A stretch of DNA of 46,614 nucleotides from a virus (Duplodnaviria; Heunggongvirae; Uroviricota; Caudoviricetes): the IMG/VR virus record IMGVR_UViG_2713896798_000017. One strand, given 5' to 3'. Shown here piece by piece: positions 30,001 to 33,000 of this stretch. Each line of letters opens with the position of its first letter. Position 1 is the first letter of the stretch. The position numbers are program-made.

Positions 30001-33000
30001 GTGGCGCTATTTTATGGGGCGGCGAAAATTTATTGCGTCCCGGCTGGCCACGCAGATGTTTTCCTGCTGGCTGGAAGAGGCACTTCTTCGGGGGATTATT
30101 CGTCCGCCACGGGCACGTTTTGATTTTTATCAGGCGCGATCAGCCTGGTCACGGGCTGAGTGGATTGGAGCCGGAAGAATGGCCATTGACGGGCTCAAGG
30201 AGGTTCAGGAATCAGTGATGCGCATTGAGGCCGGACTGAGCACGTATGAGAAAGAGCTGGCGCTGATGGGCGAGGATTATCAGGACATTTTCCGCCAGCA
30301 GGTCAGGGAATCTGCAGAGCGGGAAAAAGCCGGACTCTCACGTCCGGTGTGGATAGCGCAGGCGTATCAGCAGCAGATAGCGGAGAGTCGCAGGCCGGAA
30401 GAGGAGACAACACCCCGTGAGACGTAATCTTTCACACATTATTGCCGCAGCATTCAATGAACCGCTGCTTCTGGAGCCCGCCTATGCGCGGGTTTTCTTT
30501 TGCGCGCTCGGGCGCGAGATGGGGGCAGCAAGTCTTTCGGTACCACAACAGCAGGTACAGCTTGATGCTCCCGGAATGCTGGCTGAAACGGACGAGTACA
30601 TGGCCGGAGGTAAACGACCGGCCCGTGTTTACCGGGTGGTGAACGGTATTGCGGTACTGCCGGTGACCGGCACGCTGGTGCACCGGCTGGGGGGGATGCG
30701 GCCATTTTCCGGAATGACTGGCTATGACGGCATTGTCGCCTGTCTTCAGCAGGCAATGGCAGATAGCCAGGTGCGGGGCATACTGCTGGACATTGACAGT
30801 CCGGGCGGGCAGGCCGCCGGCGCGTTTGACTGCGCTGACATGATTTACCGCCTCCGTCAGCAGAAGCCGGTCTGGGCACTGTGCAATGACACGGCCTGTT
30901 CTGCAGCCATGCTGCTGGCGTCGGCCTGCTCCCGACGGCTGGTTACCCAGACATCCCGTATCGGCTCCATTGGCGTGATGATGAGCCATGTCAGCTATGC
31001 CGGTCATCTGGCGCAGGCCGGTGTGGATATCACGCTGATTTACTCAGGGGCGCACAAGGTGGATGGCAATCAGTTTGAAGCCTTACCGGCAGAGGTTCGC
31101 CAGGACATGCAGCAGCGCATTGATGCGGCGCGCCGGATGTTTGCCGAAAAAGTGGCGATGTTTACCGGTCTGTCTGTTGATGCCGTCACGGGAACAGAGG
31201 CCGCCGTTTTTGAAGGTCAGTCCGGCATTGAGGCCGGGCTGGCGGATGAATTAGTCAATGCGTCGGATGCCATCAGTGTGATGGCCACGGCGCTGAACAG
31301 TAATGTCAGAGGAGGCACTATGCCGCAATTAACTGCAACGGAAGCCGCCGCGCAGGAGAACCAGCGAGTGATGGGGATCCTGACATGCCAGGAAGCGAAA
31401 GGACGTGAACAGCTTGCCACGATGCTGGCAGGACAACAGGGCATGAGCGTTGCACAGGCCCGGGCGATTCTGGCCGCGGCGGCACCGCAGCAGCCGGTGG
31501 CATCCACGCAGAGTGAAGCCGATCGCATTATGGCGTGTGAAGAAGCGAACGGTCGTGAACAACTGGCGGCAACGCTGGCGGCGATGCCGGAGATGACGGT
31601 GGAAAAAGCCCGCCCGATCCTGGCTGCTTCACCGCAGGCGGATGCCGGACCCTCACTCCGTGATCAGATCATGGCACTGGATGAGGCAAAAGGGGCTGAG
31701 GCGCAGGCTGAACAACTGGCTGCCTGCCCGGGAATGACTGTGGAGAGCGCCCGGGCTGTGCTGGCTGCGGGATCAGGTAAGGCAGAACCGGTCTCTGCAT
31801 CCACAACCGCCCTGTTTGAACGCATCATGGCGAACCATTCACCGGCAGCGGTACAGGGTGGCGTGCCACAGACGTCAGCAGACGGTGATGCGGACGTGAA
31901 AATGCTCATGGCCATGCCATGAAGTCAGTGCTGATCATCAACAGGAGGTTTTTACAATATGGTAACGAAAACCATCACTGAACAGCGTGCGGAAGTACGT
32001 ATTTTTGCCGGTAATGATCCGGCTCATACCGCCACAGGCAGCAGCGGGATTTCCTCGGCAACACCGGCACTGACGCCCCTGATGCTGGATGAAGCTACCG
32101 GGAAACTGGTGGTCTGGGACGGACAGAAAGCCGGTAGTGCGGTTGGCATACTGGTACTGCCGCTTGAAGGCACAGAGACGGTACTGACGTATTACAAGTC
32201 GGGGACCTTTGCGACGGAGGCAATCCGCTGGCCTGACAGTGTGGATGAACACAAAAAGGCAAATGCCTTTGCCGGCAGTGCCCTGAGTCACGCGGCGCTG
32301 CCGTAACACGTTATCAGGCCACCGCGGTGGCCTGACTGATTTCTGAATGAAAGGAACTGATTTATGGGATTGTTTACGACCCGCCAGTTACTCGGTTATA
32401 CCGAACAAAAAGTGAAATTTCGTGCGCTGTTTCTGGAGCTGTTTTTCCGCCGTACGGTGAATTTCCATACCGAAGAGGTGATGCTGGACAAAATTACCGG
32501 AAAAACGCCGGTGGCGGCCTATGTCTCCCCGGTTGTTGAAGGAAAAGTGCTGCGTCATCGTGGTGGTGAAACCCGCGTGTTACGTCCGGGCTACGTCAAG
32601 CCGAAACACGAATTTAATTACCAGCAGGCGGTTGAGCGCCTTCCTGGTGAAGATCCGGCTCAACTGAACGATCCGGCTTACCGCCGTCTGCGTATCATTA
32701 CCGATAACCTCAAACAGGAAGAGCACGCGATTGTCCAGGTGGAAGAAATACAGGCGGTAAATGCTGTGTTGTATGGCAAATATACGATGGAAGGAGACCA
32801 GTTCGAGAAAATTGAGGTCGATTTTGGCAGGTCGACGAAGAATAACATCACTCAGGGTAGTGGTAAGGAGTGGTCAAAACAGGATCGTGACACGTTCGAT
32901 CCTACACATGATCTTGACCTCTACTGCGACCAGGCCAGCGGTCTTGTGAATATTGCCATTATGGACGGTACCGTCTGGCGTCTTCTGAATGGTTTTAAGC

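Follow-up and report, generated by a model that had tools for sequence, protein, structure and literature searches.

In bacteriophage lambda, the head protease gpC degrades the scaffold and processes head proteins during maturation (Medina et al. 2010, as cited in PMC8508860), and the C and Nu3 genes overlap (Shaw & Murialdo 1980, cited in the same source). The Nu3 scaffold interacts with itself and with C, B and E, and its contacts with the capsid protein and the portal are still poorly defined (PMC3224144). In phage 21, a 1990s record (M81255.1, listed as an earlier phage 21 fragment in PMC9119081) carries a comparable pair, genes 5 and 6, the latter with a putative ribosome-binding site (RBS), the product name 'head-tail preconnector gp6', and three repeat_regions, which bear the remark 'function unknown; putative' and the names 'Tri1 box', 'Tri box' and 'Tri3 box'. 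The complete phage 21 sequence of 2022 (OL657228.1) names the products 'capsid protease/scaffolding protein' and 'scaffolding protein', and a Gifsy-1 record quotes the Swiss-Prot entry 'Head-tail preconnector protein GP5 [Contains: Scaffold protein GP6...'. The gene examined here lies at 30417-31922 of IMG/VR virus record IMGVR_UViG_2713896798_000017 (Duplodnaviria; Heunggongvirae; Uroviricota; Caudoviricetes), a stretch of 46,614 nucleotides analysed as a whole and referred to as the window. It very probably represents, in an E. coli lambdoid prophage, the form that the nested C/Nu3 gene pair of lambda takes in phage 21, and would work as proposed below. For phage 21, the paired genes, the start inside gene 5 and the triplication were all already known, since they are documented in the GenBank feature tables (M81255.1, OL657228.1 and Gifsy-1) and PMC9119081.

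The 501-aa protein begins at a GTG, the same start as that of gene 5 in M81255.1, which overlaps the end of the portal gene, and its N-terminal two-thirds is a peptidase. Peptidase_S49 (PF01343) matched with an E-value of 5.9e-35 and a score of 120.9 against a cut-off of 24.9, the SppA structures 3rst and 4kwb matched aa 77-290 in a search of PDB sequences (E ~2e-16), and phrog_53, 'head maturation protease', matched at 2e-228; the NCBIfam SppA_dom match (2e-31) fell under its own cut-off. In the scaffold region, which is 97% identical in amino acids to phage 21 gp6, phrog_8399 'head scaffolding protein' (131 positions) matched in 3 stretches (1.2e-34). Along its entire length the gene is 98.5% identical in nucleotides to phage 21 genes 5/6, ev017 and PhiR57_1, and its 603-nt scaffold region matches a prophage of E. 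coli O145 RM9872 at 100% identity. The gene order portal, C, decoration (shp/D), major capsid is identical in phage 21, lambda, Gifsy-1 and RM9872. The S49 domain, the position in the head module and the Nu3- or gp6-like C-terminus that characterize the lambda C/Nu3 class were all found, and the Pfam, SppA-structure, phrog_53 and phrog_8399 matches support the assignment, by sequence similarity, to a lambda-C-type S49 head protease with a Nu3-type scaffold C-terminus. A preliminary annotation made from the DNA alone (the sequence-only reading) had described a head protease C with a scaffold-encoding C-terminal part, about 60 aa longer than that of lambda; the S49, phrog_53 and phrog_8399 matches bear out the description, and the length difference is 62 aa (501 vs 439).

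The sequence-only reading had also placed an in-frame start for a Nu3-like scaffold near the peptide MPQLTAT, at about 31321. Indeed, an ATG at 31320-31322 begins this peptide and is preceded, across 4 nt, by the Shine-Dalgarno (SD) sequence AGGAGG at 31310-31315, and the same ATG is annotated as the start of gene 6 in both phage 21 records. The product would end at the same C-terminus as the protease. The SD sequence is encoded by Arg-Gly-Gly codons of the long frame. A sigma-70 promoter scan of 31000-32100 detected no internal promoter. A GGAG(G)-ATG pair was present at the homologous site in about 30 diverse loci, 15-25 codons past the protease domain, with GGAG(G) located 4-9 nt upstream of the ATG in lambda, phi80, Gifsy-1, Trabulsiella, Vibrio, Pseudomonas and Marinobacter. 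In many enterobacterial homologues the scaffold SD is a Gly-Gly codon pair of the protease frame, and G299 and M302 were invariant in an alignment of five phages. The window ATG aligned with Met309 of lambda C (lambda SD-ATG at L003:2525-2545, window counterpart 31307-31322), from which the lambda product would be 131 aa; RefSeq lambda NC_001416 instead starts nu3 further upstream, at the ATG at 5132, for a product of 201 aa. Across relatives, the predicted nested product lengthened with the number of repeat units described below, from 124-150 aa (one unit) to 191-202 aa (three units) and 236 aa (four units).

The internal ATG is probably used as the scaffold start, by analogy with lambda (Shaw & Murialdo 1980) and with a phage 21 annotation that is itself marked 'putative'. 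Alternatively, the ATG could be silent, with the 501-aa protein alone made and a scaffold fragment freed from it by autoproteolysis, as the cautious wording of the phage 21 record and the uncertain start assignment in the family, exemplified by the 201-aa RefSeq nu3 from another ATG, would allow. A scaffold must greatly outnumber its protease, however, and a separate start explains this far greater abundance. The strong AGGAGG 4 nt ahead of the ATG, the retention of the homologous SD-ATG from Enterobacterales to Vibrio, Pseudomonas and Marinobacter although the flanking protein has diverged, and the C/Nu3 overlap established in lambda (Shaw & Murialdo 1980, cited in PMC8508860) likewise favor a used start, and render the autoproteolytic alternative very unlikely.

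The scaffold part contains three tandem homologous units. When the units of phage 21-type, Gifsy-1, lambda, phi80 and phiARM81ld proteins were combined into a hidden Markov model (HMM), it identified exactly three domains in the 501-aa protein (E 1e-24 to 6e-20). The phrog_8399 profile, the counterpart of the 131-aa lambda scaffold, gave its three matches independently of this model. Local BLOSUM62 scores between units were 81-97, compared with a mean of 25-28 (sd ~5) for shuffled sequences, and 0 of 2000 shuffles reached the observed score (z = 9.8-14.3; z = 14 for unit 2 vs units 1 and 3, and 9.8-14.1 for unit 3). The module is 40-44 aa, the units are spaced 47-53 aa from start to start, and the linkers between them are short and composed of Pro, Ala, Ser and Gln. 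The three units lie at the places annotated as the Tri boxes of phage 21 (Table 1). The sequence-only reading had proposed three to four tandem units of about 45 aa and a check for internal repeats; the repeats are significant in the protein by both shuffling and HMM, and three units stand, while the fourth gave no HMM match. That candidate (aa 466-501) had only 'ERIMA' in common with the units, with z ~0 or lower. Because lambda likewise carries a short DRLM motif past its single unit, and the similarity was not significant, 'ERIMA' is, on the alignment, best described as a conserved feature of the tail and not a fourth copy. The non-repeat tail is homologous to the lambda tail TALDRLMQGAP...AVNDLLNTPV and comprises one predicted helix (TTALFERIMANHSP) followed by a disordered stretch with a hydrophobic DVKMLMAMP end.

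Table 1. Features of the head protease/scaffold locus and flanking head genes, in window coordinates. The phage 21 boxes are given at the corresponding window positions.
Feature	Position	Strand	Residues or sequence	Basis
Fused head maturation protease/scaffold gene (type of lambda C and phage 21 gene 5)	30417..31922	+	501 aa	Open reading frame (ORF)
S49 (SppA-like) serine peptidase domain	30852..31295	+	aa 146-293	Pfam PF01343
SD sequence AGGAGG of the nested scaffold gene	31310..31315	+		RBS annotated there in both phage 21 records
Putative scaffold gene nested in frame (type of lambda Nu3 and phage 21 gene 6)	31320..31922	+	200 aa	SD + ATG
Unit 1	31359..31490	+	aa 315-358, NQRVMGILTCQEAKGREQLATMLAGQQGMSVAQARAILAAAAPQ	HMM domain, 1e-24
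Unit 2	31518..31637	+	aa 368-407, ADRIMACEEANGREQLAATLAAMPEMTVEKARPILAASPQ	HMM domain (aa 369-407), 8e-22
Unit 3	31659..31778	+	aa 415-454, RDQIMALDEAKGAEAQAEQLAACPGMTVESARAVLAAGSG	HMM domain (aa 415-453), 6e-20
Non-repeat C-terminal tail	31779..31919	+	aa 455-501	Alignment with lambda, phi80, phiARM81ld
Phage 21 'Tri1 box'	31387-31490		over unit 1	M81255.1
Phage 21 'Tri box'	31527-31637		over unit 2	M81255.1
Phage 21 'Tri3 box'	31668-31781		over unit 3	M81255.1
Portal gene	28835-30427			ORF
shp/D-like decoration gene	31959-32306			ORF
E-like major capsid gene	32364-33392			ORF

At the DNA level, Tandem Repeats Finder reported no repeat, and a search for DNA repeat families found just short families of 12-25 nt and no unit-scale repeat. 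The unit cores had 57-66% nucleotide identity and 32-38% identity at third codon positions. Because the DNA tools were blank and third-position identity was this low, the duplication is old and conserved as protein. The alternative that the periodicity reflects DNA elements in the gene, such as CII sites, derives from OL657228.1, where two minus-strand matches to TTGYN6TTGY within gene 6 carry the label 'CII binding'; both occur in the window (31325-31338 and 31559-31572, minus strand). The window contained 9 such motifs against a chance expectation of 10.0 +/- 3.4, however, the two sites are out of register with the units, and the similarity between units resides in amino acids and not in third codon positions or any DNA repeat. 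With the motif at chance level this alternative was rejected, and its likelihood is close to nil.

Comparison between phages indicated the age of the protein repeat. Units within one protein were 45-55% identical, whereas between phages unit 1 was 72-81% identical to unit 1 of other three- and four-unit forms, and unit 2 was 60-80% identical; unit 1 was the most like the single lambda unit (63%). Because each unit is nearer to its positional counterpart in other phages than to its own neighbors, the alignments indicate one old triplication common to phage 21, Gifsy-1 and the Trabulsiella and Providencia relatives.

Copy number was counted from full-length genes at related genome loci, the 200-aa protein search having yielded mostly fragments at contig ends, which exposed the two- and four-unit variants. 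One unit, with a long Ser/Thr/Ala/Gln/Val-rich linker ahead of it, was found in lambda, phi80 and Aeromonas phage phiARM81ld, and one unit was present at about 50 of the 80 species-representative genome loci, in Enterobacterales, Vibrio, Photobacterium, Aeromonas, Pseudomonas, Marinobacter and a few alphaproteobacteria. Three units were confined to the phage 21 clade (E. coli, Shigella, E. albertii, Trabulsiella, Providencia and Salmonella Gifsy-1), and several homologues of about 290 aa lacked the scaffold part entirely. Three-unit forms had 13 residues ahead of the first unit and one-unit forms about 45-50. Among IMG/VR relatives of at least 96% identity, 80 of 80 were exactly 1503 nt long, and the 603-nt scaffold region was detected in 1870 of 5426 complete E. 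coli genomes (in 1864 with at least 80% coverage).

A four-unit E. coli prophage lineage (538 aa, WP_096934546.1) was present in 106 of these 5426 genomes, for example at L169:628-2244 (E. coli P393-F10, NZ_CP076274.1) and in P0031 (L167). Its units 2-4 were mutually 82-90% identical in amino acids and 78-80% in nucleotides; because of this high identity, the sequences suggest a more recent duplication, or homogenization by gene conversion. Rare two-unit database proteins had a clean in-register fusion of units 1 and 2 or loss of unit 2 (P0018, that is L168, and P0021). A 19-aa deletion inside unit 2 occurred in P0009 and in P0011 (53 member sequences), and P0016 was also among the rare copy-number or deletion variants.

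Lambda-type C genes whose match statistics equal those of E. coli/Shigella loci (residues 3-491 aligned at 54% identity; a lambda-like unit score of 86-87 bits) were also encountered in assemblies labelled Neobacillus, Chromatium, Kitasatospora, Shewanella, Pseudomonas, an Akkermansia metagenome-assembled genome, Herbaspirillum, Enterococcus, Paenibacillus and others (L014, L016-L018, L020-L022, L030, L031, L039, L045, L047 and L053). Several were on low-coverage contigs of ~48.4-48.5 kb. These genes look like contamination of public assemblies with lambda control DNA.

Rough Nei-Gojobori ratios of nonsynonymous to synonymous substitution (dN/dS) were 0.05-0.40 per unit (0.06-0.24 for unit 2 and 0.06-0.40 for unit 3), the segments being short and dS saturated for distant pairs. 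Unit 1 was the most conserved, and the spacers and tail were more relaxed. From these ratios each unit looks constrained, with all three copies under purifying selection. The extra units could instead be a neutral, tolerated duplication, passenger sequence in a scaffold region that is transient and degraded. Natural copy numbers of 1, 3 and 4 with rare two-unit and partly deleted forms, the lesser conservation of unit 3, and the assembly of a head of the same kind by lambda-type phages, which have one unit and homologous major capsid proteins of equal length and 56-61% identity, would all be expected of such a passenger. Against this, dN/dS of every unit is well under 1, the units are positionally orthologous across Escherichia, Salmonella, Trabulsiella and Providencia, the length is exact in all 80 IMG/VR relatives and in all sample entries listed from 1,875 E. 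coli records, and no two-unit form occurred among the 80 species-representative loci. Neutrality of the extra units is accordingly judged improbable.

Structure prediction with AlphaFold2 (AF2) folded unit 1 alone into three helices, with a predicted local distance difference test score (pLDDT) of 82.8 and a predicted template modeling score (pTM) of 0.61. When the 200-aa product was modelled from an alignment of 21 sequences, each unit was a helix, a turn (EAxGRE), a helix, a loop (PGMT) and a third helix; a tail helix was placed at Nu3-numbering 160-173, with pLDDT below 50 in the remainder of the tail. The predicted fold of the module is therefore a small three-helix bundle, and the low pTM of the 200-aa model is consistent with beads on a string. 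A Foldseek search with this model returned no match at E <= 0.001, and a search of PDB sequences with the scaffold region returned only chance-level LacI matches (E > 0.3). NCBIfam has no family for the scaffold part, and neither fold nor sequence matched solved coat-binding domains of scaffolds, such as the C-terminal helix-turn-helix of P22 gp8. A helix-hairpin-helix match (PF00633) was rejected: it concerned one unit only and, at 13.0 bits (E = 0.095), stayed below the Pfam gathering threshold of 24.

In the proposed mechanism, one frame would give two products, the 501-aa protease from the GTG at 30417 and the 200-aa scaffold from the ATG at 31320. The scaffold region common to both would let few protease molecules co-assemble with many scaffold molecules in the procapsid, and the protease would degrade the scaffold once assembly was done. 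The three-helix units may act as scaffold interaction modules, through self-association and/or binding of the major capsid protein or portal, and the two extra units of the phage 21 clade may take up the length that the disordered linker occupies in lambda-type proteins. The hydrophobic C-terminal motif (DVKMLMAMP here, DLLNTPV in lambda) is a candidate shell anchor. The linked major capsid protein is 342 aa and 61% identical to lambda E (341 aa), and the capsid proteins of lambda-type phages are homologous to it, equal in length and 56-61% identical; because these proteins are homologous and of 342 vs 341 aa, capsid size would not be expected to differ from that of lambda.

Several results weigh against this mechanism. 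The 200-aa model was of low confidence (pLDDT 62.5, pTM 0.26), and neither PDB nor Foldseek searches gave a solved structure or specific fold match linking the module to a known scaffold-capsid interface. Natural two-unit and partly deleted variants occur, whose source phages may be viable or decaying prophages. Unit 1 evolves more slowly than unit 3 and the tail, so that the copies need not matter equally. The RBS and Tri-box annotations of phage 21 are themselves 'putative' or 'function unknown' (M81255.1).

As a more speculative extension of the nested-pair mechanism, module copy number could be a tunable 'valency' of lambda-type scaffolds, set at 1, 3 or 4 and rarely 2, a suggestion regarded as rather doubtful. 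Each three-helix unit would then be an independent site for capsid protein or another scaffold molecule, and units would be gained at the expense of the long disordered linker (13 vs ~45-50 aa ahead of the first unit). If this were true, the variants with one, two, three and four units on homologous T=7 capsid proteins would form a ready series for the study of scaffold valency. As a discovery the locus carries little weight, its sequence being among the commonest E. coli prophage genes and the pair and its triplication being in the 1990s record. The copy numbers of 1, 2, 3 and 4, the constraint on the units, the three-helix prediction and the SD sequence within conserved Gly-Gly codons are small additions. 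The added value is modest and comparative, in an old, clade-defining triplication with constrained copies, each a predicted three-helix bundle, and natural two- and four-copy variants, which might together provide a small natural experiment on valency in lambda-like head assembly.

Elsewhere in the window, three tRNA genes (Met-CAT, Arg-TCG and Arg-TCT) were located at 19482-19731 (+), just upstream of a 616-aa ORF at 20221-22071, an arrangement typical of the late-promoter region of enterohaemorrhagic E. coli (EHEC) lambdoid and Stx-type prophages. Three low-GC islands, at 12001-13000 (0.34), 16001-17000 (0.38) and 25001-26000 (0.39), stood out from values of ~0.45-0.60 elsewhere and could be insertions of moron or accessory genes.

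Among described systems, P2 gpO and the helix-turn-helix of P22 gp8 follow a similar general principle, with a small helical C-terminal element that carries scaffold and protease into the procapsid. They differ from the present locus in that neither matched the module in sequence or fold, and to our knowledge no tandemly repeated module exists in either. P2 and lambda are cited together in PMC8508860.

Lambda C (439 aa) and Nu3 resemble the locus in the fusion of an S49 protease to a scaffold region, the position between the portal and D/E genes, the nested in-frame start at a homologous Gly-Gly-x-Met, and one homologous module (NSRIMGILNCEEAHGREEQARVLAETPGMTVKTARRILAAAPQ) followed by a homologous tail. 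They differ in having a single module in place of three, a low-complexity Ser/Thr/Ala/Gln/Val linker before the module that is ~36 aa longer, a nested product of 131 aa instead of 200 aa, and only ~52% identity overall.

The four-unit E. coli lineage has the same architecture and linked head genes, with a major capsid protein 83% identical, and is distinguished by four units instead of three. Gifsy-1 STM2605 and the Trabulsiella and Providencia homologues (491-503 aa) have three positionally orthologous units and the same SD-ATG, but are only 55-60% identical over the scaffold region, with diverged tails and, in some, extra C-terminal residues.

The closest relatives are genes 5 and 6 of phage 21, whose head genes were reportedly first described by Smith & Feiss (Gene, 1993). 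These have the same lengths (501 and 200 aa), GTG start and internal SD-ATG, and three units at the same positions. The window protein departs from them by ~10 aa substitutions, and its gene resides in another mosaic prophage, the early region of which is 87-90% identical to lambdoid/EHEC prophages.

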